The notes under the pieces were generated by a model. That model saw only the letters and a program-made list of their open reading frames with translations. It did no database searches and was not told where the DNA came from. 64,000 nucleotides of DNA from a virus: positions 40,171 through 104,170 of the IMG/VR virus record IMGVR_UViG_3300009506_000006. One strand, given 5' to 3'. Shown one piece after another: positions 431 through 40,816 of the stretch. The translations under genes and the position numbers were made by a program. How positions within the stretch are numbered: the first letter of the stretch is position 1; each line of letters begins with the position of its first letter.

Positions 431-670
431 TTTTGCTTTATATAAGGTCTTACAAAATGCTTATTTGCTGATTTTGGGGTCCATAACTACCGCAATATTC
501 AATATCAAAATATATAAAGCAGCTTATAAGTATAAAATAAGCATAAAAAAATTGGACTTAACATATTGATATAATTATTATAAGCATAACAAGTACCATG
601 TTTAGAAAAATTTTTAGAAAAAAATTTTTTTCAGCCCTATATATAAGGGAAAATTTCAAAACATGCTTAT
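431..670. promoter_or_regulatory. Putative replication origin (AT-rich intergenic region with short repeats)
   Basis: Very AT-rich gap between primase and helicase; TAAGCAT motif about 4 times in both orientations, tandem TTTAGAAAAA, palindrome CCCT-ATATATA-AGGG. Confidence 0.45.
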
Positions 671-2379
671 GGGCTAAACAGGTCGTCGCGGAAGATGTTC
701 TGTGGTACCCAAATTACGAGCAGGTTCTTTTGCTTGCCATCCACAGTTGGCTGGATCCTGCTTTGCTTGCATCCTATCTGGACAAGGCGTTTGTTCATGT
801 CCGGGACAGACAGCACGCCGTACTCTTCGGAAACAATCCACTTGATAAGCGATTTGGTGAAAATGTAAATCTCGCCCTTGAACGTAATGGGATCTTTATT
901 CTTGAGCCCGCTTTCAACGATAACTGGCGGGAACTCGTCAAGATAGTCCAGCGTCCAGTTGCGTGTCTGGGTGTGCACCGTGGATTCTTCGCTGACAGCC
1001 CGCGTCTCCATGATAGCGCTTAGCATTCGCGTCACTTCGAACCAGACTTTCTTTTTGATGTCCGGCATAATCACGTCTGATTTTTTCCCGATGTTTGATT
1101 TGAACAGCCGAAATTTCTCCCAATCGTCGAATGTCTTAAACGATGAAACGACAGTGCGTCCGGCAATCGGTTCAAATTGCAAATGATAACTGGGCTCTTC
1201 CTGGTCCCATTTGACGAACTCGACGATTCTGTGCAGGCGCAGGACTTTAGCTATGCTGTCCTTGACAATTACCGGATCGTCGCTGCAGTACGACGTGCCC
1301 TGTAAAATAGCTGCTGTGGATATGCCCTGCTCCGCGTCTTCACGCTCGATGTTTTGCCGTGACTCGACAATTGTCCGGGCATAGTATTGTTTGTTGTCGA
1401 ATTTGAGCGGTGTCTTGTGCTTATTCCGAAACGCGATGAGCAGGTTCAGGATTTCCTGGTCGCTCCATCCGCACATGATGGCAAAGTGCGCCAGGGAATG
1501 GTCATATTCAGACGGAGAGTCCGCCTTGAGGTCATTGCGTTCCATTCTCCATGTATGCGTGAATCTCGGATCGAACGCATCGAACAAGTCATGGAGCCGG
1601 TCAACGTCGATGGCGGGATTGGGGTTGAACACCAGGCTCCCCAGGACTTCATGAATTTTATCCGACGATATCGCTACTTCGATAGTCTTGTTCGGCTCCG
1701 ATTCTGCAGCCGTCAGTTCTTTGGCCACAGTCAACACTTCATCCAGATCCTCCGGGTTGTACGCCTGATCTGTGGCCTTGAGCAACACGACGTCGACTTC
1801 ACAGTCATTCTTGCAGTTCTTGGTGCCCGGGATTCGAAGTATGCGTGCCAAGTCATGCGTACCGTCGATTGTATGCCCGCGCAGGCGTAGCGTCTCCAGC
1901 AGCCGCAACTCGAGATGCGCAGCCCGGCGCCTGTCTTCATCTGACTCGAATATCCACGGCTCCTTGAACAGCCACCAGCAGTGTAATCCGTACCCCGAAT
2001 GCACAATGAGCGTTGGATCCCAGCCTTGTCCAGTAACAATGCCGAGCGCGGTGTTGAGATCCGGCGCGTAGTTCTTGCCCTTGTGGGCTTGATCGTGCTT
2101 GATATCGATATCGGCCCAAAGCCCGACGATCCCGGCGGTTTGATTGGCTTTACAGCGGATATACGCTATCGACTCGCCGTTGTTGCCAACCAGTGTGCGG
2201 GGATCCGGCGACAGCGCCACACCGACGTAGACTTCTTTGGGTTTTTTGAGCGCATAACGGCCGGCTTTGACCGGGTCGGTGAACCAATGGCTGGTTTGGG
2301 TGCGCATGTGGTGAATCAGGATGTATAACTCGTTGGGCTTGTTGCCGAACAACCTGGATAAAAAATTATCTGGAGTCAT
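667..2379 (-). CDS. Archaeo-eukaryotic primase superfamily (RepB-like) primase-polymerase
   Basis: AEP motifs WADID, HSGYGLHCWW, HDLARILRIPGT; helical primase C-terminal region (SPSEYDHSLAHF); no Walker A. Confidence 0.85.
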   Translation of the reverse strand: MTPDNFLSRLFGNKPNELYILIHHMRTQTSHWFTDPVKAGRYALKKPKEVYVGVALSPDPRTLVGNNGESIAYIRCKANQTAGIVGLWADIDIKHDQAHKGKNYAPDLNTALGIVTGQGWDPTLIVHSGYGLHCWWLFKEPWIFESDEDRRRAAHLELRLLETLRLRGHTIDGTHDLARILRIPGTKNCKNDCEVDVVLLKATDQAYNPEDLDEVLTVAKELTAAESEPNKTIEVAISSDKIHEVLGSLVFNPNPAIDVDRLHDLFDAFDPRFTHTWRMERNDLKADSPSEYDHSLAHFAIMCGWSDQEILNLLIAFRNKHKTPLKFDNKQYYARTIVESRQNIEREDAEQGISTAAILQGTSYCSDDPVIVKDSIAKVLRLHRIVEFVKWDQEEPSYHLQFEPIAGRTVVSSFKTFDDWEKFRLFKSNIGKKSDVIMPDIKKKVWFEVTRMLSAIMETRAVSEESTVHTQTRNWTLDYLDEFPPVIVESGLKNKDPITFKGEIYIFTKSLIKWIVSEEYGVLSVPDMNKRLVQIGCKQSRIQPTVDGKQKNLLVIWVPQNIFRDDLFSP

Positions 2380-2689
2380 GTGGTCCTTCTGGTGCAGTAA
2401 ATGAGTTCACGTCAACCCCGTCCACTGAGTCGAAAGACTGAATGATACGAAAATACTGCTTGATTCGATCCATCCTGACACAAAAGATACATGAATCGTT
2501 TTTTAACTTGGGAAATTCCTGCACAAAGGTTTCAGGCTTGTAGATCAGATAGTACTGCAAATCATCTCTTGATCCATAACTTAAATATAAAACTGCGACG
2601 TAAATGCGCATGTGTTTGAATATGAATTTATAAGCAAGATCCGACGTTGGACTCTGAATATAAATCAGCTTGAGAATTGTCATGCGCAT
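2366..2689 (-). CDS. Hypothetical protein
   Basis: ORF overlaps both neighbours in the co-directional operon. Confidence 0.55.
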   Translation of the reverse strand: MRMTILKLIYIQSPTSDLAYKFIFKHMRIYVAVLYLSYGSRDDLQYYLIYKPETFVQEFPKLKNDSCIFCVRMDRIKQYFRIIQSFDSVDGVDVNSFTAPEGPHDSR

Positions 2690-2931
2690 GTATGCTTAAT
2701 TATTTTAAAATATCGCTTGAAGGCATTGCTAAATATATGTTGTGAAGTTGCGTATTTGGCCCCGGGCAGCGGAGAGTCGTCCAGCGTGGATACATCATAA
2801 ACGCATCGACTTTCTTTTGAACTCCAAGAAATTAGTTGAGCGCAGTAAGGATGAAATTGTTTGTAATGGACATTCTCAGCAAGTTCGGGAATTAGTTTTT
2901 TATCGACGTCCTTAATGCAGATGACAATCAT
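2680..2931 (-). CDS. Hypothetical protein
   Basis: Co-directional ORF overlapping the next gene. Confidence 0.55.
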   Translation of the reverse strand: MIVICIKDVDKKLIPELAENVHYKQFHPYCAQLISWSSKESRCVYDVSTLDDSPLPGAKYATSQHIFSNAFKRYFKIIKHTCA

Positions 2932-2968
2932 ACCGATTGTACCTCAAGTTTCTTGCTTTAAGCAAGAA

Positions 2969-3286
2969 TTAATCATAAATAGAAAAGCTGTCTATCGACA
3001 AAGGAGAAACTCCAACGTATGCTGCCGTTGCGCAAGAGAAGCCGGATGGTGCCTGATAACTCTTGAAGCGCTCCGCAATTTCCGAATTTTCGCACATGGC
3101 CCAGCGTGTTTCGGTACGGTGGCATTCTGAACATTCCCGTGATTGCAGGCATTGGTGCTGTGCGTCTGGCATACCGGCCTCGTAATATCCGATTACGTCT
3201 TGGCACATTGTTATCACCCAGTCTTGCCAGCAGTGATACTCACCGCCCAGGCGTTCTCACAAATGACGGCGTAGTGGCTTGCTCAT
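2969..3286 (-). CDS. Cys-rich protein with in-frame TGA at codon 10 (readthrough/selenoprotein candidate or nonsense pseudogene)
   Basis: ATG at 3286 overlaps upstream stop (ATGA); MSKPLRRHL*ERLGGEYHCWQDW continues in frame into ORF 2969..3217. Confidence 0.45.
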
Positions 3287-3681
3287 TGCATGCTCCATCG
3301 TTTCAGAATTGCCTCAGCTTCAGGAGATTGCCGGGTAATTTGAACTCCATTGATCCGCAGCAGCGCGATAAATGCTTGCGTAACCGAGCGCTTGGCCGGT
3401 TTGAAGCTGTCCGCCACGGATTTCCTGTAACCCGAAACAGTGTAGACCAAAGAGCCATCCCAGACATATGGCCGCAGGCTTGCCGGACAAGACTGGTCCA
3501 AGTAGCGATATCTTGGCCACAGATGCATGTCCAATGGAAAACCACAGTTCGCGCAGATAGTGTAGCCATGCAGGGGCAGCCACCGCAGTCTTGCCTCACC
3601 GTTATATGTGCTGAGCAAATATTTAGCTGCGTCGGCGAGGCTTATCTTGCGCCCTCGCTTGAATTTGATCAAATCACTCAT
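3283..3681 (-). CDS. CCHC zinc-finger paralog family A, member 1
   Basis: ICANCGFPLDMH...C and C-terminal AFIALLRINGV. Confidence 0.8.
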   Translation of the reverse strand: MSDLIKFKRGRKISLADAAKYLLSTYNGEARLRWLPLHGYTICANCGFPLDMHLWPRYRYLDQSCPASLRPYVWDGSLVYTVSGYRKSVADSFKPAKRSVTQAFIALLRINGVQITRQSPEAEAILKRWSMQ

Positions 3682-4046
3682 ACTGAAAGACAGCTCTCTT
3701 TAATCTTAGAAAAGACAGCTCCCTTTAATCTTAGATACGCCATGAAGGCCTCGGTCTTGCCGTTAGTATCCCGTTCGAACTTCTTGGTGCGGTAATGATT
3801 GACTCTGGGTCCGCTCCAGCGGTATTGTGATGTACACCGTCGTCCCCAGGCATACCACTCATGCGACACGCTCGATGGGCACCCTACCATGATTCCCCAT
3901 GGAGACAGATGCATGCCGTACGGATACCCGCAGTTTGCGCATATCTCGAATCTGTCGTGGCGTTTGTATTGGGCATCATTGATAAAGCTTTTGTCGATGG
4001 CGATGATTTCAGCAAAAGTTGGCTGCCATTTGATTTTGTCTGCCAT
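3678..4046 (-). CDS. CCHC zinc-finger paralog family A, member 2
   Basis: ICANCGYPYGMH...C and AFMAYLRLKGA. Confidence 0.8.
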   Translation of the reverse strand: MADKIKWQPTFAEIIAIDKSFINDAQYKRHDRFEICANCGYPYGMHLSPWGIMVGCPSSVSHEWYAWGRRCTSQYRWSGPRVNHYRTKKFERDTNGKTEAFMAYLRLKGAVFSKIKESCLSV

Positions 4047-4058
4047 GGTGTTCCTCCT

Positions 4059-4400
4059 TTATTCACAAACCTGAATGCCATGCAATCGCAGCATGGTAAT
4101 GATCCATGTGACTTGATGCTGGTTGTTAAGTTTAGGTTGAAAATAATTGATCTTAGAAAAGCGTCCATCATAGATGCGCATGACTTTACGATATTTTGGA
4201 CAGTGTGAAGCATTGTGTTCGCCCTGATGCCAATGGCAATTCCGGCATATTTGAAGCGCTGAAAATTTGATCGGATATTTTCGATAGCCGCAATCGTAAT
4301 CAAGCAGTATCTGCTGCAGATTGCGCTTGAGGTATTGAGGAACTTGCTTCATTGTCATAGCAACGTTACTCCATGCAGTCGAAACATGGCTATCAGCCAA
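4059..4400 (-). CDS. CCHC zinc-finger paralog family A, member 3
   Basis: ICRNCHWHQGEH...C and WIITMLRLHGI. Confidence 0.8.
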   Translation of the reverse strand: MADSHVSTAWSNVAMTMKQVPQYLKRNLQQILLDYDCGYRKYPIKFSALQICRNCHWHQGEHNASHCPKYRKVMRIYDGRFSKINYFQPKLNNQHQVTWIITMLRLHGIQVCE

Positions 4401-4678
4401 CGTTCTTCGATACTGTCTTCTAACCGGCGGAAATGTGAATCACGCGCGAAGTAAGCACAACCATGTGTGTTGACGATGCAGCGATGCTTTACAATTGAAT
4501 GATATCCGTATGAAAACCCACAATTTGCGCAGATCTCGCACCACTTTCGTTTATAAGCTATTTGCCCGGGATAATAGGATCCAATTAAAGCGTGTGCTAA
4601 AGCGCCTTGGAAGAATTGACGAACTACAGGTCTAATGATTTGTTTTTCCATAAGATACAACCAATCGCGCAAAATCAC
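4355..4678 (-). CDS. CCHC zinc-finger paralog family A, member 4
   Basis: ICANCGFSYGYH...C and WLIAMFRLHGV. Confidence 0.8.
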   Translation of the reverse strand: MILRDWLYLMEKQIIRPVVRQFFQGALAHALIGSYYPGQIAYKRKWCEICANCGFSYGYHSIVKHRCIVNTHGCAYFARDSHFRRLEDSIEERWLIAMFRLHGVTLL

Positions 4679-4899
4679 GCAAACAAATGTATGATTTGTA
4701 TGGCAGTAGATCCGACCAGAATTCCCCAGTAAAATGACTTTCTTTCGAATCTCTTGATCATGGCGATAGCCAGGTCGTCGATATAATACCGGCGTTGGTT
4801 AAATATAATGGTGTCCGGTGTATTCATTCTTAACATCCTATACGAGGTGGATTCATTGTAACTTTCTTGCCACGCAAGCGCAGCATGGAAGCTAACCAT
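4675..4899 (-). CDS. Small protein with C-terminal hydrophobic helix
   Basis: C-terminal FYWGILVGSTAIQIIHLFA; overlaps neighbours. Confidence 0.5.
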   Translation of the reverse strand: MVSFHAALAWQESYNESTSYRMLRMNTPDTIIFNQRRYYIDDLAIAMIKRFERKSFYWGILVGSTAIQIIHLFA

Positions 4900-5099
4900 A
4901 CTTGCTCTTCATCGGTGTCTTGTGGACAAAATCCTTGGCTGCATAAAGGCGTTGAATGAAATCCGTAGCGCTGTCCGCAGTGTTTGCAAATGCATAAATG
5001 ACCATAATAATATGGATGATATACAGTGTTACGATCAATGCCGCGTATAATCTCTTCCAGTATGGCTTTAAGTTTCCGTAAACGATCGTCCGATATCAT
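4830..5099 (-). CDS. CCHC zinc-finger paralog family A, member 5
   Basis: ICKHCGQRYGFH...C and WLASMLRLRGK. Confidence 0.8.
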   Translation of the reverse strand: MISDDRLRKLKAILEEIIRGIDRNTVYHPYYYGHLCICKHCGQRYGFHSTPLCSQGFCPQDTDEEQVWLASMLRLRGKKVTMNPPRIGC

Positions 5100-5218
5100 T
5101 TATCCCCCCCTACCCTGTGCCCCCCCAAATATTTTGTAAACTCCGCTGCCCGGCCGGCCCGGCTAATAGCCTCCCTCCAGTTGTCAGCCTACCCGGGGGT
5201 ATCGAACCGGGAAGCGGG

Positions 5219-5458
5219 TTATTTTTCTACTAATTTAAAGCCATGCAGTCGCAGCAGTGCTTGAAATGCCGTAGTTTTTTCGCGATCATGCTGATTTTTA
5301 ATATCTTCAACGCTATATTGATTACAGCCTTCCCTGTTATGTCGTCCGCTTCGCATGCCGCAGTGGGGACAAATATAGGACCATTTAATAAGATATTCCG
5401 GATTAGTAAGTTTCAACTCTTTGACCTGCAGCAGTTGTTCGTGTAGAGAATGTTTCAT
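5219..5458 (-). CDS. CCHC zinc-finger paralog family A, member 6
   Basis: ICPHCGMRSGRH...C and AFQALLRLHGF. Confidence 0.8.
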   Translation of the reverse strand: MKHSLHEQLLQVKELKLTNPEYLIKWSYICPHCGMRSGRHNREGCNQYSVEDIKNQHDREKTTAFQALLRLHGFKLVEK

Positions 5459-5721
5459 TTCAGTTTGACCCCATGCAGCCGCAACAGCGCCCTAAACGCT
5501 TTGGTTTTTTGGACATCTTCAATAAATGTCGGCTTTTCTTGGTAATAGCAGCGCGCAATGTAACCTTTACCGATGTTGGAATAGTGATCGCCACGCGTCT
5601 TGCCACATAATTTGCAGAGAGCGGAATATTCCAGTCTGTGATCACGCATTCCGTACGGTGGTCTATCAGACATGGCATTTTGAATGTAGTACTGCACGAG
5701 TTCCTTCAGTGAGCGGTCCAT
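5455..5721 (-). CDS. CCHC zinc-finger paralog family A, member 7
   Basis: LCKLCGKTRGDH...C and AFRALLRLHGV. Confidence 0.8.
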   Translation of the reverse strand: MDRSLKELVQYYIQNAMSDRPPYGMRDHRLEYSALCKLCGKTRGDHYSNIGKGYIARCYYQEKPTFIEDVQKTKAFRALLRLHGVKLK

Positions 5722-5995
5722 ATATCAATTCGTTCCAATGAGGATTTCGTTCGGTGTAAACCTCGACTCCGTGGATACGCAGATAAGCAATGGCTACATT
5801 GAGATGTTTTTCAAAATCAATTTCAGGTTTGAATTTTAGTGTCGGATGGCCTCGGGTGCACTGGCCATCACAGTGCGCACCACGCCGCAACCCGCAATGT
5901 GCACACAGCACCAGATAGGCGCTGTTGTACGTCATCCGGCGTATTTTGTTTTCTTCTATAATTTCACCGTACAGCTCACGCAGACTTGCCGCCAT
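5666..5995 (-). CDS. CCHC zinc-finger paralog family A, member 8 (likely start MAASLRE at 5995)
   Basis: LCAHCGLRRGAH...C and AIAYLRIHGV. Confidence 0.8.
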   Translation of the reverse strand: MAASLRELYGEIIEENKIRRMTYNSAYLVLCAHCGLRRGAHCDGQCTRGHPTLKFKPEIDFEKHLNVAIAYLRIHGVEVYTERNPHWNELIYGPLTEGTRAVLHSKCHV

Positions 5996-6479
5996 GCCGA
6001 TAACTCCGTCCTTGGTTGTATTCATGCTTGGCTTTGATTTCAGCCTCAATATCGATGCCCCAACCGCGGGCAGCGTCCAGAGTGCGAATTATAATGTCAG
6101 CCAACTCGGCGCCCAGGCTGTTAGTGTTGTCATGCACATCGTTGCGATGGGCTTCGAGAGCTTCGGAAACCTCGCTGTGTATCAGTGCCAGAACTTCTGG
6201 AATATTGCGTTGGCGGGAGATCTGGATCAGATCCAGGAAAGCAGTGAGAATCTTGAGGATTTTATCGACGTTGAGCGTGATGTATTCATCGTCATGGCTG
6301 CATTCCATGTCTCCACTTGATTGTGGATTTGCTATGCAGTACTGAATCCTGGAGCGGTATTCCATGATTAGTTGATACCACTGTTTCAGATTCATGCCGT
6401 CGATTTTGATCGGAGAATCCCACCAGCCCTTGTCACGGGCTATTTGATGGATGTCGCTGGCTATGTCGTTGATGTCCAT
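5976..6479 (-). CDS. MazG-like nucleotide pyrophosphohydrolase with internal insertion
   Basis: LALIHSEVSEALEAHR...GAELADIIIRTLD...IKAKHEYNQGRSYRHGGK. Confidence 0.85.
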   Translation of the reverse strand: MDINDIASDIHQIARDKGWWDSPIKIDGMNLKQWYQLIMEYRSRIQYCIANPQSSGDMECSHDDEYITLNVDKILKILTAFLDLIQISRQRNIPEVLALIHSEVSEALEAHRNDVHDNTNSLGAELADIIIRTLDAARGWGIDIEAEIKAKHEYNQGRSYRHGGKSA

Positions 6480-7045
6480 TGGTGTCCTTTAAAGTTTGGA
6501 TGTTCATATATGATCCCGCCGTACTTCTTATTGCTATGCCTAATTTGCAAAATGTTTTCAGTTAGAATCAAGTCACCAGTACAACTGCAACGATTATATA
6601 CCATTATGAAGCTTTTCAATGGTCCAGTTGTGTTGCGGACATATCCAGAGCAGATCCCGGAGCCGGGAATTGTATCGAACGGCTCGCCAGTTTCGAGATT
6701 ACCGTAAGTAATGGTAAGGCGGTTGTGCAAAAATTTGTTGACAGCAAGATGACGATGGATACTTGGTGGAGTTTTGACTGAAACATAAATAAGCTCAGGG
6801 ATGTTGGACACGCCGTACAAGTTATACTTGGTTGCACCGTACATGCCATACTTGGTTGGCGCATAATGCAGATTACCGTTTTGATCGATTAAAATGCGCG
6901 ATTTGCATGCCGGGCACCACCGTGCTTGGAGTTGGTGTTGTTCTAGCTCAGACTTAAGATGTGCAGAGCCATGGAATGTTGAATCAGGAGGTGTTTCTAA
7001 CTGATGGAAACCCTTTTCACACAACTTCTTGCGTAGATCACTCAT
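6461..7045 (-). CDS. Hypothetical protein (CxxC motif)
   Basis: 194-aa ORF tightly packed in the operon; WCPACK. Confidence 0.6.
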   Translation of the reverse strand: MSDLRKKLCEKGFHQLETPPDSTFHGSAHLKSELEQHQLQARWCPACKSRILIDQNGNLHYAPTKYGMYGATKYNLYGVSNIPELIYVSVKTPPSIHRHLAVNKFLHNRLTITYGNLETGEPFDTIPGSGICSGYVRNTTGPLKSFIMVYNRCSCTGDLILTENILQIRHSNKKYGGIIYEHPNFKGHQWTSTT

Positions 7046-8926: not shown

Positions 8927-9133
8927 TCATTGCAATTGGTCCTTGGTTGGATATGTAAACGGCGCCTTGTCGACCAACCGATCGTTGTCGATCCAGAAAT
9001 ACTTTCCGCATATGATATTGCTGCATTGATACGGTCCATGCTGGGTGCTTTGCTTGTCGCCCCAGCCGGTCTTGACGATTTTGCCTGTACGACATTTTGG
9101 ACAAATCATGACAATTTCCTTTTGACACTCCAT
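8927..9133 (-). CDS. Small zinc-ribbon protein
   Basis: CPKC...CSNIIC. Confidence 0.5.
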   Translation of the reverse strand: MECQKEIVMICPKCRTGKIVKTGWGDKQSTQHGPYQCSNIICGKYFWIDNDRLVDKAPFTYPTKDQLQ

Positions 9134-9300
9134 GGCCCGGCTTCTTCGCTGTCCGGACTCAGAACCGTATAGTAACGGGTTCGATTGTAATATGTGCCAC
9201 CGCCATCCAAGACTTTAGCTATGGCTTCATTTTCATCGACCGCATCGATGAGCACATCCTGAATATGGACTTCTTTGGTACTGACAATAAACTGTGCCAT
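9106..9300 (-). CDS. Hypothetical protein
   Basis: GGGG RBS, co-directional. Confidence 0.6.
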   Translation of the reverse strand: MAQFIVSTKEVHIQDVLIDAVDENEAIAKVLDGGGTYYNRTRYYTVLSPDSEEAGPWSVKRKLS

Positions 9301-9313
9301 TTATTCCCCCTTA

Positions 9314-9892
9314 TTATGATTTTTTGGATTTCATCTGAGTTTTTTCAGTGTATCCAATCACACCTTCAAATTCTTTTGGCAGCGATTCGTCGTTATCAAC
9401 CCATTCCCGGATCAGTGCCGACAAACTCTGGTGGTTGACCTTTTCATTGACATAAATCTCACCATATCCAGCTGCTTTAAGAGCTGCTATCATATCGTCA
9501 TCAGTTACGCCGTCTTCCTTTTTAGCCCAGATTTGTGAATGTGAATATATCGTACGTCCGATGACGTTAGCGTACTTAATTCCGACACTGGCAAATTGTT
9601 CCTGCAGGATTGGGTCAATCACGGCCTTTCGTTTTTTAAGTATTTTTTCTTTGAAACTGATTGCATCCAATTCGGCATCGATTCTTGCGAATTCTCTAAG
9701 CAACTCGCTATCCAGATTTGGCACCGGTATATGGACGCTGGCATCAATTTTGGCTATCTCCTTCGCAAGCTCCGCGTCTATACGGGCAAACTCAGCCAGT
9801 AAATCAGTACTGAGCGGCGGTTGTTCACTATTGGCTTCTTCGGCATCCAGTCGATTGAGTTCATCGATAATATCGTCTATGTTGTCAGACAT
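9314..9892 (-). CDS. Phage protein typical of SSB/helicase clusters (gp33-like) with duplicated N-terminal helix
   Basis: C-terminal IAALKAAGYGEIYVNEKVNHQSLSALIREW; repeat LL(A/R)EFARIDAEL twice. Confidence 0.6.
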   Translation of the reverse strand: MSDNIDDIIDELNRLDAEEANSEQPPLSTDLLAEFARIDAELAKEIAKIDASVHIPVPNLDSELLREFARIDAELDAISFKEKILKKRKAVIDPILQEQFASVGIKYANVIGRTIYSHSQIWAKKEDGVTDDDMIAALKAAGYGEIYVNEKVNHQSLSALIREWVDNDESLPKEFEGVIGYTEKTQMKSKKS

Positions 9893-9894
9893 CG

Positions 9895-10152
9895 CTACTC
9901 CCTGTAAAAATAGTTTCGTTTTAACAACGCAAATTTAATTTCGCATGCCCGATCCTTATTGGACCCTGTCGAAAAGACACTTTGCTTGTTTTCGCAGCAG
10001 CCACGGATGTGTTCCCCACGCAGGTAGCCGCAATTGACGCATGTGTGATTGGAAAGCACATTCCATTGCTTCATCGGTATTTGTTGCAGATAATCCAAGT
10101 TACCGCTCATCTGATATTGGCGATACAGTTGCAGGGCTATGGCTTTGGTCAT
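9895..10152 (-). CDS. CCHC zinc-finger paralog family A, member 9 (start MTKAIAL)
   Basis: TCVNCGYLRGEHIRGCC and degenerate KFALLKRN. Confidence 0.65.
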   Translation of the reverse strand: MTKAIALQLYRQYQMSGNLDYLQQIPMKQWNVLSNHTCVNCGYLRGEHIRGCCENKQSVFSTGSNKDRACEIKFALLKRNYFYRE

Positions 10153-10372
10153 GATTTTGCTCCTGTACCAAAAATTGAACCCATGTTTTAAACGAAAAAA
10201 ATAGCTGAGAATCATCCGGATAAAGGCAATATGCAGGCCCTGTGTCAGGTCCGCAATGTCTTCCGAGTCTTTGATGACAGCGATCGCATATTGGCTGCTG
10301 GTCGTGTGTCCAGTAGCCCTCCCAGTATTTCTGGAGCAGCCAGCTGTGGTATGCTGCGGTAAGTTTGACCAT
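10100..10372 (-). CDS. CCHC zinc-finger paralog family A, member 10 (start MVKLTAA)
   Basis: ICDRCHQRLGRH...YC. Confidence 0.6.
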   Translation of the reverse strand: MVKLTAAYHSWLLQKYWEGYWTHDQQPICDRCHQRLGRHCGPDTGPAYCLYPDDSQLFFSFKTWVQFLVQEQNHDQSHSPATVSPISDER

Positions 10373-11568: not shown

Positions 11569-12978
11569 TTATTGTATCTCCGACAATACCGATTCAATAA
11601 CTTTGAACCTGCTCTTAAGTGCATACCAGGTCTTGACGTCAACAGTGCCTTTAGCGATCAGATGATAATAGAACACCTTGCGCATTTGCCCTGGCCGATG
11701 TGTACGTGCCAGGCTTTGTAAATATTGTCCCAGGCTAAAGCCCACAGAGAAATAAATGCAATACCTGGCTCGAGTTAAGTCAATGCCCTCGCCACCAGCT
11801 TGGATCTGCGCAACAAGCACATTGTACTTCCCGGCTTTCCAATCTGCCAATTCATTGTATCTCCCGGACACTTCAGCGCATGACCTGCCGATTGATTGGG
11901 CTGCAGTTTTGATGCGTTCAAGCTCATTCACGAAACGTGTGAAGATCACCACCGGCTCATCCAATGGCAAATCCTCGAGTATTTCCGTGCACAACTCAAT
12001 TTTAGAATTATCGATAACCAACTCGCGTCCGTCATCTAGTTTGGCAAACCCGCCAGCAAGCTGTGCCAACCTGAGCAACTTGACCAGGGCATTGTCCACG
12101 CTGATTTCGCCACCGGCTGCACGGGCATCCTGTACTTCCGCAATGAATTCCTGCTCGAGCTCACGGTATAGCGCCATGGTTTGGTCGTCCAGATCGCAAC
12201 GTCGTTCGATGTGCTGTGTTTCCGGCAAGTCCAGCACATCAGCTGCTTTGACACGGTATGCCATGGAATAAAACTTCTGATTAAGCTCTTCGATATTGGT
12301 GAACGCTACGACTTGTTTGTTTTCAAAACCGCCCATTATGCAGTATCGCTTGCGAAACAATTGAAACGATCGCCCGAAGATTGCGTCATTGAGCGCACGA
12401 TACTGAGCATAGACATCGATCAGGGATGACGGCATGGGAGTCCCTGAGAGCGCCAGACGATGTTTAGCTTTCTTGGCTATACGTGCTGCACCCCAACTGG
12501 CACGGCCGCCGGGTGCCTTGATTCTGTGGCATTCGTCAAGTATCAGCAAGTCCCAATCATACTGCATTAACACGCCAAGATCTTTAATGCGGTTTCGAAT
12601 ATGCGTAGGCCCGAGCGGCGGCCGCCAAAACGCATCGTAATTAAATACCGCCGCAATACGCTGATTGCGTACATTCGCCAGCTGCATAGCCTGCTGGAGT
12701 TCCGCGGTCTTGCGCGCTACCGTGCCTTTTGTTGGTGCAAACACATGGAACGGCTGGTGGCTGTGGAGATCGAACTGCTCCGGCCAAACATCGATGACTT
12801 TCTTGGGGCATAGGATCAGCACCTTGCTGGCGTTCCAACCATTAGCCATGTCGATTGCTGATTTTGATTTGCCGCAGCCCATTTCGAACGCCAAGTAGAA
12901 CGCGTACTTGTGAGCCGCCAGTTTCCAGGCCTCGACTTGATGGCTCCAGGGATCAGTCTTGGTTAGAGGATAATGCAT
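11569..12978 (-). CDS. SNF2-family (SF2) helicase
   Basis: FEMGCGKS, LILDECHRIK, LALSGTP, QSLARTHRPGQ. Confidence 0.95.
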   Translation of the reverse strand: MHYPLTKTDPWSHQVEAWKLAAHKYAFYLAFEMGCGKSKSAIDMANGWNASKVLILCPKKVIDVWPEQFDLHSHQPFHVFAPTKGTVARKTAELQQAMQLANVRNQRIAAVFNYDAFWRPPLGPTHIRNRIKDLGVLMQYDWDLLILDECHRIKAPGGRASWGAARIAKKAKHRLALSGTPMPSSLIDVYAQYRALNDAIFGRSFQLFRKRYCIMGGFENKQVVAFTNIEELNQKFYSMAYRVKAADVLDLPETQHIERRCDLDDQTMALYRELEQEFIAEVQDARAAGGEISVDNALVKLLRLAQLAGGFAKLDDGRELVIDNSKIELCTEILEDLPLDEPVVIFTRFVNELERIKTAAQSIGRSCAEVSGRYNELADWKAGKYNVLVAQIQAGGEGIDLTRARYCIYFSVGFSLGQYLQSLARTHRPGQMRKVFYYHLIAKGTVDVKTWYALKSRFKVIESVLSEIQ

Positions 12979-19976: not shown

Positions 19977-20664
19977 AATCTGAGCAGTCTTTGATCCATT
20001 GTTCCCAGATATTTTCTTCTTGTGGTATAATCTGAAAGCCCAACTCTTTAATTTTTGTCAGCATTCGTTTAGCTGCATTTGAATTATGGTCGTTGTAATG
20101 GATAACTTCGTATGGCGACATGTCGATCATAAAATCTGTTAAATCTGAAGCAAACTCAACAACTTGGTCAAAACTTTTTCCGGAAAGGTTGACTTCGTAT
20201 TGTTTAACTTTGATGAATTCTTTTGCAGTCTTGATTCTTCCGGCATTGAATAACTCTCTGAGTCGATCAGTGTCCATTTGCCCATTAATATACCGCGACC
20301 TCCCGTAGTCTCGCTCATAGGCAATTGCGGCACCGTAAATTTTTCCGATACCGGCGTATCCTTGATATTCCAGAATGATATTTTTTTGCATGTCGATTAC
20401 GATCAAGCCGTATTCAACTGGCGCCAGATACGGATGGCCGGCATAGACTGGTGTCATATTAAATTCGAACTGCCGATCGTGCTGGTGTTGTTGCCAATCT
20501 TGACGCATATCATACCAGCGTCCCAGGTATTCATTGAGATGCTCCAGATCTTTTTCGATTAACTTGATATTGTTGATAAACCATGGAATTGGATTGGTCC
20601 AGCGTGACATGCGGTGTTCCATCCCATTTTCTTCGCGAATAGTAACGCCGATATTTCCACCCAT
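19969..20664 (-). CDS. Phage hypothetical protein
   Basis: 231-aa ORF with GGAGG RBS. Confidence 0.75.
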   Translation of the reverse strand: MGGNIGVTIREENGMEHRMSRWTNPIPWFINNIKLIEKDLEHLNEYLGRWYDMRQDWQQHQHDRQFEFNMTPVYAGHPYLAPVEYGLIVIDMQKNIILEYQGYAGIGKIYGAAIAYERDYGRSRYINGQMDTDRLRELFNAGRIKTAKEFIKVKQYEVNLSGKSFDQVVEFASDLTDFMIDMSPYEVIHYNDHNSNAAKRMLTKIKELGFQIIPQEENIWEQWIKDCSDYE

Positions 20665-20888: not shown

Positions 20889-21326
20889 TCATTCATATTT
20901 TCCACCTGTACGCTCATTGAGCTTCTCGACATATTGTTCCCGATTCCAACTGCTCGGCACTTGACTCGGCATTCGTGGATGCACAGCTTGTTCATCCGGA
21001 GTACGCGCCGGCCGGGTCAGAATTTTAAAGCTGCCATCGATGCCAACCAATCCTGCCAACCGGCTGGCACGAAATACATGCTCACGGCCGTCTTTATGCC
21101 TCTCGGTAAATCTGTCGGATTTGATAATGACCGGAGTCCATTTGGATGGCGGCCACTGCTGCGCCAGGGTTTTGCGACCGTCTCGAGATCCGTCCGTGCG
21201 CGCAAAGCCGTTCCATTCATATGATCCTTTACCGTAGGGATCTTGTCCTTCAAAATTACTGGCATGTACTTGGGCTCCGATTGAAACCCAGAAACCTAAT
21301 CCTTCAAGTCTGAGTGATCCACACAT
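20889..21326 (-). CDS. Minimal SRAP (SOS response-associated peptidase/HMCES-like) protein
   Basis: N-terminal MCG, F.ER, ILTRPA...VHPRMP. Confidence 0.75.
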   Translation of the reverse strand: MCGSLRLEGLGFWVSIGAQVHASNFEGQDPYGKGSYEWNGFARTDGSRDGRKTLAQQWPPSKWTPVIIKSDRFTERHKDGREHVFRASRLAGLVGIDGSFKILTRPARTPDEQAVHPRMPSQVPSSWNREQYVEKLNERTGGKYE

Positions 21327-21601
21327 TCTACCACCTCCAAAATTTTAAATCTTTTGTTAAAATCAGGTGCATTAAACCATTGATACTTTTCCGGATTATA
21401 GAGTAGTACAGCATATGGAACGCATTCGTCTCCGCTATCCTCTATACAATAATAAGTATGTATCATACTGAAATTCTGACACGATTTGACGCAGATAACA
21501 CGCATAACTCTGAAGTGTCTGTGGCTTTTTTCGTCCATATCTCTAAAAAGTTTATATATTCGAGTGTTTTTGTAATCATGAGCATCTTGTTCATAGTTCA
21601 T
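21296..21601 (-). CDS. Paralog family B member 5
   Basis: MRVICVK...YY...FNKRFKILE. Confidence 0.7.
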   Translation of the reverse strand: MNYEQDAHDYKNTRIYKLFRDMDEKSHRHFRVMRVICVKSCQNFSMIHTYYCIEDSGDECVPYAVLLYNPEKYQWFNAPDFNKRFKILEVVECVDHSDLKD

Positions 21602-21652
21602 AATTATACCTTAAGAAAGAACAAGGAGCTTCTCTTTTTTGCTAAACAAAAC

Positions 21653-21680
21653 GGGGGAGCCGGATGATTCCAACTCCCCC
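21653..21680 (-). terminator. Intrinsic terminator
   Basis: GGGGGAGTTGGA-ATCA-TCCGGCTCCCCC then GTTTTGTTT. Confidence 0.7.
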
Positions 21681-21682
21681 GA

Positions 21683-21711
21683 GTCTTACTTCAGGCGAGA
21701 TAATTTGTCAA
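21683..21711 (-). promoter_or_regulatory. Promoter with imperfect operator, driving the accessory block
   Basis: TTGACA-17-TAAGAC; TCTTAC-TTCAG-GCGAGA; flank TTTGTCAAGTTTTTTTTGACA identical to the one at the cro promoter. Confidence 0.7.
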
Positions 21712-21727
21712 GTTTTTTTTGACATTA

Positions 21728-22234
21728 TTAAATCTTGTTCATTTGCTTTAGCCCGATCAATGAAAGCTTGTGGACGCTGTTATACAGATCGTCTAAGCTC
21801 ATTAATGTCAACGTTTTGTCCACCGATCCTTGCAGTTGAATATCATTTTCAAACACAAGGAAGTTGTTCGACAATATCAACAATGTCATACCGGCTTGCT
21901 TGTTGAACTCTGCAACTTTAAGTATGATAGCGCTTTGAAGATCCGACATACTGAGTCCGGCTTCCACGGTGCTTCGAATACGTACATACCATGCGTCGAA
22001 TTCAGACAAATATTTTTCACCAGCCCAGATCATGGGTAATTGAGCCGCGGTAACGAAGGCTTTCTGGGCAACACACGGGTTTGCGATCTTAGCTGCAATG
22101 ATGCTGTTCTCCGATGTGGCTCCAACCTGTTCGTAGACGTCACAGGGCTGGCTTGTAACCGGCGCGATCTGTAGCATAGAGCCGCAGCCGACAAGCATAA
22201 ACAAACTCAATAGAGAAACAATAATTTTTTTCAT
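21728..22234 (-). CDS. Lipoprotein
   Basis: MKKIIVSLLSLFMLVGC lipobox. Confidence 0.75.
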   Translation of the reverse strand: MKKIIVSLLSLFMLVGCGSMLQIAPVTSQPCDVYEQVGATSENSIIAAKIANPCVAQKAFVTAAQLPMIWAGEKYLSEFDAWYVRIRSTVEAGLSMSDLQSAIILKVAEFNKQAGMTLLILSNNFLVFENDIQLQGSVDKTLTLMSLDDLYNSVHKLSLIGLKQMNKI

Positions 22235-22267
22235 TTTTTCATTCCTTTCTTCTTTTTCTTTTTGCTT

Positions 22268-22534
22268 TTACTTTTGCAAGCCATGCTGTACCTCCCGTGC
22301 TTTTCTGCGTAGATTTTTGCTTACATTATATTGATTGTCACATACGCGGCATAGATGGCTCAAACCATCGTACCGTGACTTATTTTTATTGAATTCCTTA
22401 ATCGACAACGTGCGTCGGCAGCAGTAACAGAATTTTACCAGCTCCAACCCTGTGATGTCTCTTTCGTCTATCTCTATCGATCGACCAAGCGAGACACCAT
22501 GGCAGCATGATATGTGCGTGCCTGATGACTCCAA
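22268..22534 (-). CDS. Small Zn-finger protein of the type found N-terminal to HNH nucleases
   Basis: CYCCRRTLSIKEFNKNKSRYDGLSHLCRVC. Confidence 0.6.
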   Translation of the reverse strand: MESSGTHISCCHGVSLGRSIEIDERDITGLELVKFCYCCRRTLSIKEFNKNKSRYDGLSHLCRVCDNQYNVSKNLRRKAREVQHGLQK

Positions 22535-39043: not shown

Positions 39044-40816
39044 TTAGCTGCTTTGAGATGCAACGACTGGCCGAGTCGGCTGCAATCCCAACCTGCTCAT
39101 GTTCTGAAACACGTTAGCTGCCAGATTCTGTGCGAATTGTTTGTCCGCACATTGCTGCAAGGCTTGTTGCAGACCCGTTAATGCAATAACGCCCTTCTCG
39201 AGCTGAGTCATGGCCAGATAGTACGCGCACTCACACATAAACTCGGGTCTGAAGTTAAATGTGAAATACCCGTAGCCTTCTTTTTTCTGAGCCATTTCCG
39301 TATATCTCTGGACGAATTTGGATGCTCCCTCCACGGCGAGTGTATGGTCCTTAGTCGACCGACCCAGATCGAATGCCGCATACATCAGATCCAGACTGGT
39401 GGGTTCCAGGACCGAGCCGCGATCCAGCCATTCTCTGGCTTTGTCCAGCTTGTTAACTTTCATGTAACGCTTAATCAGCGTGTAATATACAGAACGCTGA
39501 AATTCGTTTTCAGGGATTATGTCGCGATGCTTTGCGTAGATTTCGGCATACTCCAGACATTTGTCTTCATCGTTAAGCCATCCATGATATTGGCTTAGAT
39601 AAAACATCGCTTCGTAATCGTTTGGATTATCTTCCAATCGTTTATTGAGCAGACCCACCGAGCGCTTAAATTTCTTTTTACGCTCTTCAGGACTAACGTC
39701 GTATCCGTAATGATTGAGTACTAGTTCGACCAGATGCCTGCGTTCACCTTCAACGATTGCTTTGTTATGCACGATGTTAATATAGTGCACGCAGCCTTTG
39801 CGGAATAACCGTGTAGGCGTAAGCGTCGCCATCATTTTTCCGCCTTGGTAATCTCGCAACGCCGGACATATTCCGTTAGCCGTGGTCTCTTTCAGAAACT
39901 TACGGATTTCGTTTGGTGCAGCTCCATCGAGAACCAACTCTTCGTCTGCATCGATCTGAAACAGCCAATTACCAGTACAATATTCCATGCATTTATTACG
40001 TGCCTTGGAAAAATTGATCTGTGGTCCGAACTCAGTTTCCACGAAATATTCTTTTAAGTTGTCCGGTTGATAAACCCTGGCGCCGAAGTTGCGACAGATT
40101 TCCATGCTGTTATCGGTTGAACCTGTGTCAAGCACCACCAATTCATCAGCTAATGGCACAATCGACTGCAAACAGCGCGGCAAATTCTTAGCTTCATTAC
40201 GCACGATCATCATGAAGCTGATTTTCACGCCTTTGTGATTGGATTTTTTAACCAGCTTAGCTTCTTTATCGAACAGATCTTTGATCTGGTGCAGATGATA
40301 CATGTACAAACCGGGCATGATATAAAGCTCATAGCCCGCACTGACTAAGCGTTTGTGATAGTCGTTATCGACTCCCATAAATACGTTTTCTGTAAAGCCA
40401 TTAACTTTTTCCCAAGCCTCTTTATGCGTTAGAATAAAGAAGCCTGACATTGGCTTGTCTGACTGCGGCTTAATTAACTGTGAACCGTACTGCCGATATA
40501 ACTCATTGGAATATTTAATATGACCGCGGATGTCATCATGAGCACTTTGCGGTGTGAATTTCTGATCATCGCACCAAGTTCGATTCGTTACGCCTGAGAT
40601 CCAGCCGGCTTTGTGCCCGACTTGCTCGATGGCGTCCAGGCACATCTCGTACCACTGTGGACGCAGCAGCAAGATATCCGAATCCAGAAACAGCACCCAG
40701 TCGTCGACTTTGGCCATGGCCTGATTGTACGCCTTGCCGATATTGCCGGGCTCGTACGGAACGATCACATCAATTTTGTGGTCTCTGGCTTTATGCGAAT
40801 CAATTTTCCAGGCCAT
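39044..40816 (-). CDS. Two-domain GT-A/GT2 glycosyltransferase with C-terminal TPR-like region (likely start MAWK)
   Basis: FLDSDI; MIVRNEAKNLPRCL...VLDTGSTD...FSKARN...QIDADE; HYGY; helical TPR-like tail. Confidence 0.9.
   Translation of the reverse strand: MAWKIDSHKARDHKIDVIVPYEPGNIGKAYNQAMAKVDDWVLFLDSDILLLRPQWYEMCLDAIEQVGHKAGWISGVTNRTWCDDQKFTPQSAHDDIRGHIKYSNELYRQYGSQLIKPQSDKPMSGFFILTHKEAWEKVNGFTENVFMGVDNDYHKRLVSAGYELYIMPGLYMYHLHQIKDLFDKEAKLVKKSNHKGVKISFMMIVRNEAKNLPRCLQSIVPLADELVVLDTGSTDNSMEICRNFGARVYQPDNLKEYFVETEFGPQINFSKARNKCMEYCTGNWLFQIDADEELVLDGAAPNEIRKFLKETTANGICPALRDYQGGKMMATLTPTRLFRKGCVHYINIVHNKAIVEGERRHLVELVLNHYGYDVSPEERKKKFKRSVGLLNKRLEDNPNDYEAMFYLSQYHGWLNDEDKCLEYAEIYAKHRDIIPENEFQRSVYYTLIKRYMKVNKLDKAREWLDRGSVLEPTSLDLMYAAFDLGRSTKDHTLAVEGASKFVQRYTEMAQKKEGYGYFTFNFRPEFMCECAYYLAMTQLEKGVIALTGLQQALQQCADKQFAQNLAANVFQNMSRLGLQPTRPVVASQSS

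Follow-up and report, generated by a model that had tools for sequence, protein, structure and literature searches.

Results

Gene array and family members

The window, a stretch of 64,000 nt (positions 40,171 to 104,170 of IMG/VR record IMGVR_UViG_3300009506_000006) from the 107,865-bp (~108-kb) genome of an uncultured marine-sediment phage, carries at positions 3283-5995 eight small genes of a single family on the minus strand (Z1 to Z8), all of which (8/8) were found as ORFs at the coordinates of the original prediction. The array had been described as neighbouring replication genes, and indeed it lies inside the replication module between the genes for MazG and a primase-polymerase (PrimPol), with UvrD-like and SNF2 helicase genes and a Gam-like gene nearby. 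The features of the locus are:

5666-5995, minus strand: Z1, full member of 109 aa (CAHCGLRRGAHCDGQC ... AYLRIHGVEVY plus a 29-aa tail; profile E 6e-28), whose first 20 nt lie within the end of MazG
5455-5721, minus strand: Z2, full member of 88 aa with exactly three Cys and one ligand His (P0014); with the long start it shares 56 nt with the Z1 tail, and one gene caller chose a 64-aa form
5219-5458, minus strand: Z3, minimal member of 79 aa (C30, C33, H40, C45; R70, G73), whose start shares an ATGA overlap with the Z2 stop
4830-5099, minus strand: Z4, full member of 89 aa (CKHCGQRYGFHSTPLC ... MLRLRGKKV), with a 119-nt gap and a G-rich RBS upstream
4355-4678, minus strand: Z5, full member of 107 aa with a GTG start and an alternative ATG at 4651 (P0001)
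4059-4352, minus strand: Z6, full member of 97 aa, or 113 aa with TTG at 4400 (4059-4400), in which H replaces G after the second Cys (P0002)
3678-4046, minus strand: Z7, full member of 122 aa with a strong AAGGAGG RBS
3283-3681, minus strand: Z8, full member of 132 aa with three Cys, in which the loop from His to Cys spans 11 residues; its start shares an ATGA overlap with the Z7 stop
9895-10152, minus strand: X1, knuckle-only relative called as an 85-aa gene (CVNCGYLRGEHIRGCC; degenerate tail FALLKRNYF), directly upstream of the DUF7307/Gam-like gene
10100-10372, minus strand: X2, possible 90-aa gene or decayed copy (ICDRCHQRLGRHC ... KTWVQFLVQEQ), missed by the gene callers and overlapping X1 by 53 nt
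3686-3735, minus strand: 25-nt tandem duplication (96% identity) that copies the DNA for LRLKGAVF of Z7; the second repeat unit, translated in another frame, provides the C-terminal extension of Z7
4675-4899, minus strand: 74-aa ORF between Z4 and Z5, free of Cys and not called by the gene callers

The array is laid out compactly and its genes are translationally coupled. The family is larger than the eight copies first noted, which stand, as the genome holds 11 full members of 79-132 aa and the two knuckle-only, remnant-like relatives X1 and X2. The other three full members map to genome positions 20955-22338, outside the window and 22 kb from the array, and the full copies (n=11) are grouped in three clusters. 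All 11 have intact frames with 4/4 ligands present and score E 1e-21 to 1e-34 in a profile search of the phage's own genome. X1 (E 3e-5, 14 bits) and X2 (E 0.004, 16 bits) match in the knuckle only; their tails keep the hydrophobic pattern and have lost the R and the G. A search of all six frames of the 107,865 bp with the pattern C-x2-C-[GHNR]-x5-H-x3-14-C matched 13 ORFs, all on the coding strand, compared with 0-1 in each of 20 shuffled genomes. The genes are real and the family is conserved. The 74-aa ORF was considered as a decayed member and rejected on a family HMM score of -0.6. A search of positions 2300-6600 with Rfam gave nothing, and a scan for promoters and terminators remained at chance level.

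Conserved residues and the metal site

All eight array genes encode a knuckle of the form C-x2-C-(G)-x5-H-x4-13-C(P) and a C-terminal element A/F-x-A-x-L-R-L-x-G-(V/I)-x-(L/V), past whose Gly the tail continues as a hydrophobic-x-hydrophobic strand. The Cys2-His-Cys site and the tail of the originally proposed motif are thereby confirmed; its His-to-Cys loop is to be corrected from 3-12 to 4-13 residues. In the alignment of Z1 to Z8 the C, C, H, C, R and G columns are invariant at a mean column identity of 28%, and the same six are invariant or nearly so across 22-25 sequences that include other phages. Across 25 aligned sequences, drawn from no fewer than five contigs, the four ligands never vary; in each of these sequences six residues separate the second Cys from the His and 4-13 separate the His from the last Cys. 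Between the G and the H of the knuckle there is often a basic or aromatic residue. Besides the four ligands, the R and the G there is no invariant residue, and pairs of paralogues are 20-37% identical with BLASTP E values from 1e-8 to about 1, in keeping with the earlier remark that the copies have little else in common.

The bound metal is predicted to be zinc, and almost certainly so because three members have exactly three Cys plus the one invariant His. A nuclease of the HNH or His-Me finger type, which would call for a conserved catalytic His and an Asn/His metal ligand besides the structural Cys pairs, was rejected, as only C, C, H, C, R and G are invariant and no HNH model of Pfam matches; in the three-Cys members the single His is required as a zinc ligand.

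Predicted structure

AlphaFold (AF2) models of Z3 (pLDDT 79.5, pTM 0.72) and Z7 (pLDDT 82, with 72-82 among five models; pTM 0.73) both show a compact zinc-knuckle domain, modelled with the highest confidence at the knuckle and the C-terminal helix, which agrees with the conserved scaffold that had been expected. From the N-terminus onwards, the predicted elements are a helix, the knuckle [ILV]-C-x2-C-G-x5-H-x4-13-C-P, an insert, the C-terminal helix ending in L-R-L-x-G and a short beta-strand. The insert comprises 13-50 residues and varies among paralogues; it is a helix in the minimal member Z3 and a four-stranded sheet, which follows the fourth ligand and precedes the C-terminal helix, in Z7.

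The original prediction also saw in the LRLHG helix the docking site for a common partner. The models do not support this: in both, LRLxG forms the last turn of the C-terminal helix, the one modelled best (pLDDT 90-95), and is followed by the Gly and a conserved beta-strand, and helix and strand look more like an element of the scaffold than like a free peptide for docking. From model confidence, secondary structure and helical periodicity only, we infer that this helix is buried, and a helical-wheel estimate derived from the alignment would place the invariant Arg on the border of the hydrophobic arc or beyond it.

Four fold libraries were searched with the models and gave no significant match (Foldseek E<=1e-3 or Z>=8); the best scores were Z 3.8 and 2.2, Foldseek E >= 0.49 and Atlas TM <= 0.56, and such a missing match is not proof of a new fold. 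Among the weak rows for the 79-aa model was sigma-70 region 1.1 (Foldseek TM 0.44, E 5; VIA Z 3.5; Atlas TM 0.49-0.56), with scores that are all below meaningful thresholds for 79 residues; moreover, region 1.1 is acidic and helical, whereas the Z family is basic and predicted to bind metal.

Distribution of the family

The family had not been recognized as a named one, and it has no significant match in Pfam, PHROGs, NCBIfam, PADLOC, the PDB sequences or the four fold libraries. A profile search of 1.84 billion protein representatives, the route to relatives proposed with the original prediction, gave 24 matches, about 11 of which are full-length relatives, all on short phage-like metagenome contigs; the family is therefore very rare. 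The same profile finds proteins of other phages with two to three tandem knuckles (P0016, P0020, P0023 and P0024; E 1e-5 to 3e-4). Word-indexed protein searches with profiles of 11 and 22 sequences returned almost nothing beyond the phage's own proteins, a search of viral and metagenome contigs for the Z7 subgroup found no relative, and the array DNA has no match in cultured phages. Nor does any family member occur in 22 loci around distant relatives of PrimPol and MazG (28-46% identity); a pattern match in this survey (L027:577-837) is a different small phage protein, phrog_419. Two rows for Microviridae VP4 in a tblastn search with the best-scoring member (E 0.4-0.9) were dismissed as chance, with the Cys ligands unaligned. 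Scores in a protein language-model atlas (<=0.85) were at chance level, anti-defence and host-takeover families gave no match, and none of the RNA runs checked for the phage is listed as containing it. Taken together, the Z family is a phage-restricted family of small proteins with a single Cys2-His-Cys metal site and no earlier name.

Age, selection and variation

In a relative whose PrimPol and MazG are 60% and 57% identical to those of our phage, the members are one-to-one orthologues in preserved order. Array content nonetheless differs, as the relative L013 has two members upstream of MazG and lacks Z1. Orthologues were assigned to Z1 (P0017, by the tree), Z2 (L013:1659-1952, 41% identity), Z3 (P0011 and L013:1949-2158, 48-50%), Z7 (P0010, 55%, and P0018) and Z8 (L012:370-732, 39%; tree support 100/98). 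In the tree the phage's own paralogues interleave with sequences of other phages, as foreseen for an old and diversified expansion, and the supported pairs are Z1-P0017, Z8-L012 and Z3-P0011. Orthologues are 39-55% identical, their synonymous sites are saturated and no Cys/His ligand has changed. Since orthologues in order, saturated synonymous sites and invariant Cys/His come together, the sequence comparisons indicate that the expansion is old and under purifying selection. The inserts differ among paralogues and are kept among orthologues, the Z7 group for instance conserving GCPSS, EW-AWG and INYYR.

Because dS is saturated between the sole available orthologues, rates were compared by dN alone. 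Orthologue dN is 0.40-0.83 versus 0.34-0.36 for MazG or PrimPol, a difference too modest to bear out the earlier idea of anti-defence or degradation effectors; the array content that varies among relatives and the estimated position of the Arg off the hydrophobic face leave some room for it. Contigs from three other studies are >99% identical to the phage and show six differences in 13 kb, which leaves no power for pN/pS; the parts of the array that these near-identical contigs cover have zero changes and no presence/absence variation.

Comparison with known zinc proteins

The nearest familiar motif is the retroviral-type knuckle zf-CCHC (PF00098; zf-CCHC_2 to _6). Like the Z-family knuckle it is a short Cys2-His-Cys site in which Gly follows the second Cys, another Gly is close to the His and the last Cys frequently precedes a Pro; phage proteins related to the Z family carry their module in tandem copies. 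The two differ in spacing (C-x2-C-x6-H-x4-13-C in the Z family, C-x2-C-x4-H-x4-C in zf-CCHC) and in context, the Z-family knuckle being part of a larger alpha/beta domain whose C-terminal helix-Gly-strand is conserved. The eight window proteins gave no zf-CCHC row at E<=10 and no knuckle model of Pfam reaches E=0.1; with the relatives the best zf-CCHC values are only 0.28-0.51. Also comparable are phrog_10623, a PHROGs family of unknown function, and P0016, P0020 and P0024, which have the knuckle C-x2-C-G-x5-H-x5-7-C-P in common with the Z family and are likewise encoded in early, DNA-metabolism regions of phage contigs. Unlike the Z family, however, they have two to three knuckles per protein and neither an N-terminal helix nor an LRLxG tail, and it is P0016, P0020 and P0024 that match phrog_10623, whereas the window proteins are absent from its matches at E<=1 in one search and at E<=0.1 in another.

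Lar-like restriction alleviation proteins (PF14354 / phrog_6422) and other small zinc-ribbon accessory proteins of phages resemble the Z family in being small, phage-encoded, zinc-binding (predicted here), non-enzymatic and early-region proteins, but Lar is a C4 zinc ribbon and the Z-family ligands are CCHC. Identity with Lar was rejected, since phrog_6422 was matched by 1/9 members at a non-significant E of 0.09 and Pfam gave no match; language-model neighbours including Lar scored 0.80, which is chance level. The best PDB sequence-profile match (E 0.14) was the zinc ribbon of bL32, which has the same local pattern C-x2-C-G-x5-H. Yet bL32 uses four Cys ligands (C-x2-C...C-x2-C), and in the Z family the His must be a ligand because three members have just three Cys. 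A ubiquitin-like tail (LRLRGG), extended, C-terminal, ending in Gly(-Gly) and borne on a beta-grasp fold, was rejected as well, because the motif is internal, has a single Gly and is predicted to end a helix, with a conserved strand after it; the fold searches gave no beta-grasp match.

Discussion

Most small early phage genes lack an assigned function, and families with many diverged copies are a promising source of new host-interaction or DNA-handling activities. The Z family offers a clear metal site, two confident models that match no known fold, one-to-one orthologues and a knuckle that recurs in other phages, and is a well-defined candidate for naming as a domain of unknown function. For now it is best described as an uncharacterised family rather than as proof of a new mechanism.

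But why would one phage keep so many diverged copies of a single small domain? We lean, tentatively, towards the reading that the Z proteins are small non-enzymatic binders made with the replication genes, each modulating a different host or host-defence macromolecule, with protein targets slightly ahead of nucleic acid as the ligand. The knuckle and the helix-Gly-strand would form the constant scaffold, the insert and the N-terminal segment would provide a binding surface with its own target in each paralogue, and the modules, stabilised by zinc, would act on host proteins through their paralogue-specific inserts; the invariant Arg and Gly would then serve the fold or the metal site and not a common docking partner. 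That no residue beyond the four ligands, the R and the G is invariant argues for a non-enzymatic role, and inserts that are paralogue-specific yet conserved among orthologues, an array content that varies among relatives and the rarity of the family all suggest accessory, diversified binders. Against this stand orthologues that change only slightly faster than the replication enzymes and the lack of presence/absence variation among near-identical copies, a pattern unusual for arms-race genes. The neighbourhood and the multi-knuckle relatives by RecT/YqaJ suit a nucleic-acid ligand equally.

Nearly as likely, in our view, is that the Z proteins are instead nucleic-acid or nucleoprotein binders of the replication/recombination module. 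Their extended CCHC knuckle would contact ssDNA or RNA, with paralogues specific for different structures or sequences and serving, for instance, to regulate replication, recombination or gene expression. Retroviral-type knuckles contact single-stranded DNA or RNA, and the CxxCG...G.H....CP character of the site is that of zinc knuckles, although no zinc-knuckle model of Pfam matches. Two to three tandem knuckles, as in the relatives, are typical of nucleic-acid binders, and the gene context points the same way: one tandem relative lies near RecT/YqaJ, P0022 directly follows a UvrD-like helicase gene, the array itself is placed between MazG and PrimPol, and X1/X2 precede the Gam-like gene. Less telling is the basic character of 10/13 own members (pI 8.3-9.9), as pI and aromatic content are like those of the phage's other small ORFs (median pI 9.0 vs 8.4, p about 0.1) and Y1 and P0013 are acidic (pI 5.5 and 4.8). 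Moreover, it is hard to see why 11-13 distinct binders with different inserts would be needed.

We regard as improbable a role as adaptors, in which the LRLxG helix docks on one partner (a protease, a ligase-like enzyme or a phage hub protein) and the variable parts recruit host or defence targets for inactivation or degradation. The R and the G of the tail are the sole invariant residues that are not ligands, the Arg would sit, by the alignment-based wheel, at the margin of the hydrophobic arc or off it, the DNA for LRLHG is conserved enough to register as direct repeats, and the motif recalls, as a lead only, the LRLRGG tail of ubiquitin. However, the motif is internal and helical and is followed by the conserved strand within a compact domain (pLDDT 90-95 and pTM 0.72-0.73, as above), it has one Gly and no Gly-Gly terminus, and on the short contigs of the relatives no candidate partner gene co-occurs with the family. 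About as doubtful, or slightly more so, is the modular form of the idea, a set of substrate receptors on a constant zinc-knuckle scaffold, whose Arg/Gly helix end, reminiscent of the LRLRG tail of ubiquitin, would dock on a common host or phage machine and whose eleven different inserts would capture eleven host or defence proteins; if true, bacterial viruses would have an equivalent of the adaptor gene families found in large eukaryotic viruses. Finally, that the copies are selfish or decaying duplicated ORFs, currently without function, seems to us very improbable. The uncalled X2 with its degenerate tail, the out-of-frame 25-nt duplication that altered the C-terminus of Z7 and the 56-nt overlap of the Z1 tail with Z2 would fit decay, but no full member among the 11 has lost its reading frame or any of the four ligands, orthologues are still 39-55% identical although their synonymous sites are saturated, and the genes are compactly arranged and translationally coupled.

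The zinc-knuckle array and its genomic setting

The eight small genes Z1-Z8 (window 3283-5995, minus strand, numbered along transcription) were all found where the original prediction had placed them. When they are aligned, no more than six columns are invariant (C, C, H, C, R and G) and mean column identity is 28%; BLASTP E-values between paralogue pairs range from 1e-8 to about 1. The pattern C-x2-C-[GHNR]-x5-H-x3-14-C matches 13 times in the six frames of the phage genome, always on the minus strand and in an ORF of the Z, Y or X groups, whereas each of 20 shuffled genomes contains 0 or 1 match. The zinc-knuckle array is therefore real, far beyond chance, and bigger than first seen. Since Z2, Z3 and Z8 have exactly three cysteines, the invariant histidine must serve as fourth ligand if the site is tetrahedral, and the earlier description of the motif as CCHC is apt. 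A profile of Z1-Z8 located four further places in the genome and a regular-expression scan one more:

Genome 20955-22338 (L009:6956-8339), minus strand: Y1-Y3, three full members forming another tandem cluster, 22 kb beyond the window
Window 9895-10152, minus strand: X1, knuckle kept, tail degenerate
Window 10100-10372, minus strand: X2, knuckle kept, tail degenerate

The tails of X1 and X2 retain the hydrophobic pattern and have lost R and G. Y1-Y3 are closer to each other (E 1e-12 to 1e-14) and share an extra conserved cysteine (CPxxLDxxGC); the stretch between Y3 and Y2 contains two small ORFs (68 and 69 aa) that overlap each other. Just downstream of this cluster a 119-aa protein (L009:6250-6609, genome about 20249-20608) carries an RF-1 domain (Pfam E 2.5e-18) with a GGQ motif, which makes it a phage-encoded ribosome rescue factor of the ArfB/peptidyl-tRNA-hydrolase-like kind, and a DUF1937/nucleoside 2-deoxyribosyltransferase-like protein (L009:9892-10236, E 1.5e-19) is encoded nearby.

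The phage record is rated complete by CheckV (107,865 bp) and carries nearly all genes on the minus strand; judging by public sequencing runs it occurs in marine sediment, and three further studies yielded contigs more than 99% identical to it. The Z array lies inside the replication module, which reads, in minus-strand order:

Window 11569-12978, minus strand: SNF2 helicase
Minus strand: 250-aa coiled-coil protein, followed by X2 and X1
Window 9314-9892, minus strand: DUF7307/Gam-like protein
Minus strand: Phage_VG64 protein, then phrog_23155, then a 194-aa protein
Window 5976-6479, minus strand: MazG-type pyrophosphatase, directly before Z1-Z8
Minus strand: three small ORFs after Z8
Window 667-2379, minus strand: primase-polymerase (PrimPol)
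Minus strand: UvrD-like helicase and RNase T-like exonuclease

A 68-aa ORF (window 8927-9133) has a C4 zinc-ribbon pattern (CPKC...C...C) unrelated to the Z family, and a 64-aa gene called in the Logan assembly (about 9106-9300) is nearly co-located with it. The Cys-rich 82-aa ORF downstream of Z8 (window 2969-3217) has an orthologue, 48-50% identical, at the same position in a related phage (L012:985-1263) and is therefore a conserved gene.

The array itself is densely packed: Z2/Z3 and Z7/Z8 overlap by ATGA, and a number of ribosome-binding sites can be recognised. Z1 has a long C-terminal tail, and the 56 nt at window 5666-5721 encode both part of this tail and, in a different frame, the N-terminal helix of Z2; one gene caller has Z2 start at an internal Met instead (64 aa). 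In Z7 a 25-nt tandem duplication (96% identical, window 3686-3735) repeats the DNA encoding LRLKGAVF, and, 25 not being divisible by 3, the repeat is translated as SKIKESCLS. This duplication, which makes the C-terminal extension of Z7 and the ATGA overlap with Z8, is absent from the Z7 orthologue P0010.

Relatives and predicted structure

The original prediction recognised no named family here, and the searches agree. Neither Pfam nor PHROGs gave a significant match for its members, nor did NCBIfam or PADLOC for 25 sequences, the searched cultured phage genomes, or all PDB chain sequences (best, bL32m, E 0.14). Searched exhaustively with HMMER, 1.84 billion cluster representatives gave only 24 matches at E<=1e-3, made up of nine from the phage itself, about eleven full-length relatives with the tail, located on short metagenome contigs, and four longer multi-knuckle proteins from small-ORF regions of phage-like contigs. 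Proteins of this kind (L022:6001-6729, L023:4310-5026, P0016 and P0023) repeat the knuckle, C-x2-C-G-x5-H-x5-7-C-P, two or three times in tandem and lack the tail. At the knuckle the relatives P0016, P0020 and P0024 match phrog_10623, a family without assigned function; the genes for RecT and YqaJ begin a further 1.5 kb downstream of P0020. The multi-knuckle relatives together with the phrog_10623 match show the knuckle to be a wider, uncharacterised phage module; the complete domain is confined to a few dozen sequences. Another relative, P0022, is a single-copy member preceded by the C-terminal part of a UvrD-like helicase and followed by a 227-aa protein (L021:1269-1949) with no Pfam match.

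AlphaFold2 models built with the family alignment (Z3, pLDDT 79.5, pTM 0.72; Z7, pLDDT 82.0, pTM 0.73, with five models spanning 72-82) place N-terminal helices before the knuckle, which is followed by a short helix in Z3 and four strands in Z7. Both contain a long terminal helix (residues 59-71 and 97-107, respectively) that finishes in L-R-L-x-G and has the highest model confidence (90-95). A short strand follows this helix in the Z3 model, and the aligned sequences show a conserved hydrophobic-x-hydrophobic pattern behind the Gly. In a helical-wheel projection one face is shared by the conserved A, F, L, L and L, and the invariant Arg would lie at the edge of this face. The LRLHG helix probably belongs to the scaffold, as a helix-Gly-strand element. 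The original prediction had assigned to it the binding of a common partner of diversified host-targeting effectors or adaptors, a model we regard as improbable.

No meaningful match to the models was obtained with Foldseek against PDB, BFVD and AFDB clusters (E at least 0.49), with VIA-align against 48,161 chains (Z 3.8 and 2.2) or in the Atlas (TM <= 0.56); sigma-70 region 1.1 turns up repeatedly among the low-scoring matches of the 79-residue model, below any useful threshold. The Z family is an unnamed one with an unmatched predicted fold; its metal site varies a familiar type, and its members form a paralogue array. It is well defined and testable.

Age and selection

Two contigs from one JGI metagenome, L012 and L013, come from a relative of the phage (PrimPol 60% and MazG 57% identical). 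On L012 the counterparts of Z7 (55%) and Z8 (39%) keep their order and are followed by orthologues of two small ORFs of the window and of PrimPol. On L013, which has no Z1, Z2-like (41%) and Z3-like (50%) genes follow MazG, upstream of which stand two members, one Y-like, that the window phage lacks there. In a maximum-likelihood tree the phage's own paralogues are mixed in among foreign sequences (with good support for Z1-P0017, 97/90, for Z8-L012, 100/98, for Z3-P0011, 94/93, and for P0013 with the Y group, 95/88), and the label 'own' requires nine changes. This interleaving shows that the duplications predate the split of these phages, with some later gain, loss or movement, and bears out the proposal of an old, diversified expansion.

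Between orthologues dN is 0.40 for Z7, 0.49 for Z3, 0.65 for Z8 and 0.83 for Z2, as compared to 0.36 for MazG and 0.34 for PrimPol, and synonymous sites are saturated, which indicates purifying selection on the Z genes. Their rates run from close to those of the replication enzymes up to roughly double, a pace unlike the runaway divergence that marks typical arms-race genes. It is very unlikely that the copies are non-functional. Across 13 kb, near-identical phage copies from other studies differ in six places, too few for a population test and all of them away from the array where it is covered; the array is stable among these copies. None of the RNA runs contains the phage.

Possible function

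What, then, might the Z proteins do? An enzymatic role is unlikely because only R and G are invariant besides the four ligands. Binding of nucleic acid or nucleoprotein would fit the resemblance of the motif to a zinc knuckle, the relatives with tandem knuckles and a DNA-metabolism neighbourhood in three independent contexts. Most members are also basic, but we give this no weight since their pI does not differ significantly from that of the phage's other small ORFs. We consider such binding somewhat less likely than the reading we tentatively prefer, in which the Z proteins would be protein-directed modulators, diversified binders that may act on host or defence factors. Such binders are favoured by the age of the multi-copy expansion, by inserts that are paralogue-specific yet kept between orthologues, and by an array content that differs between relatives within a narrowly distributed family.
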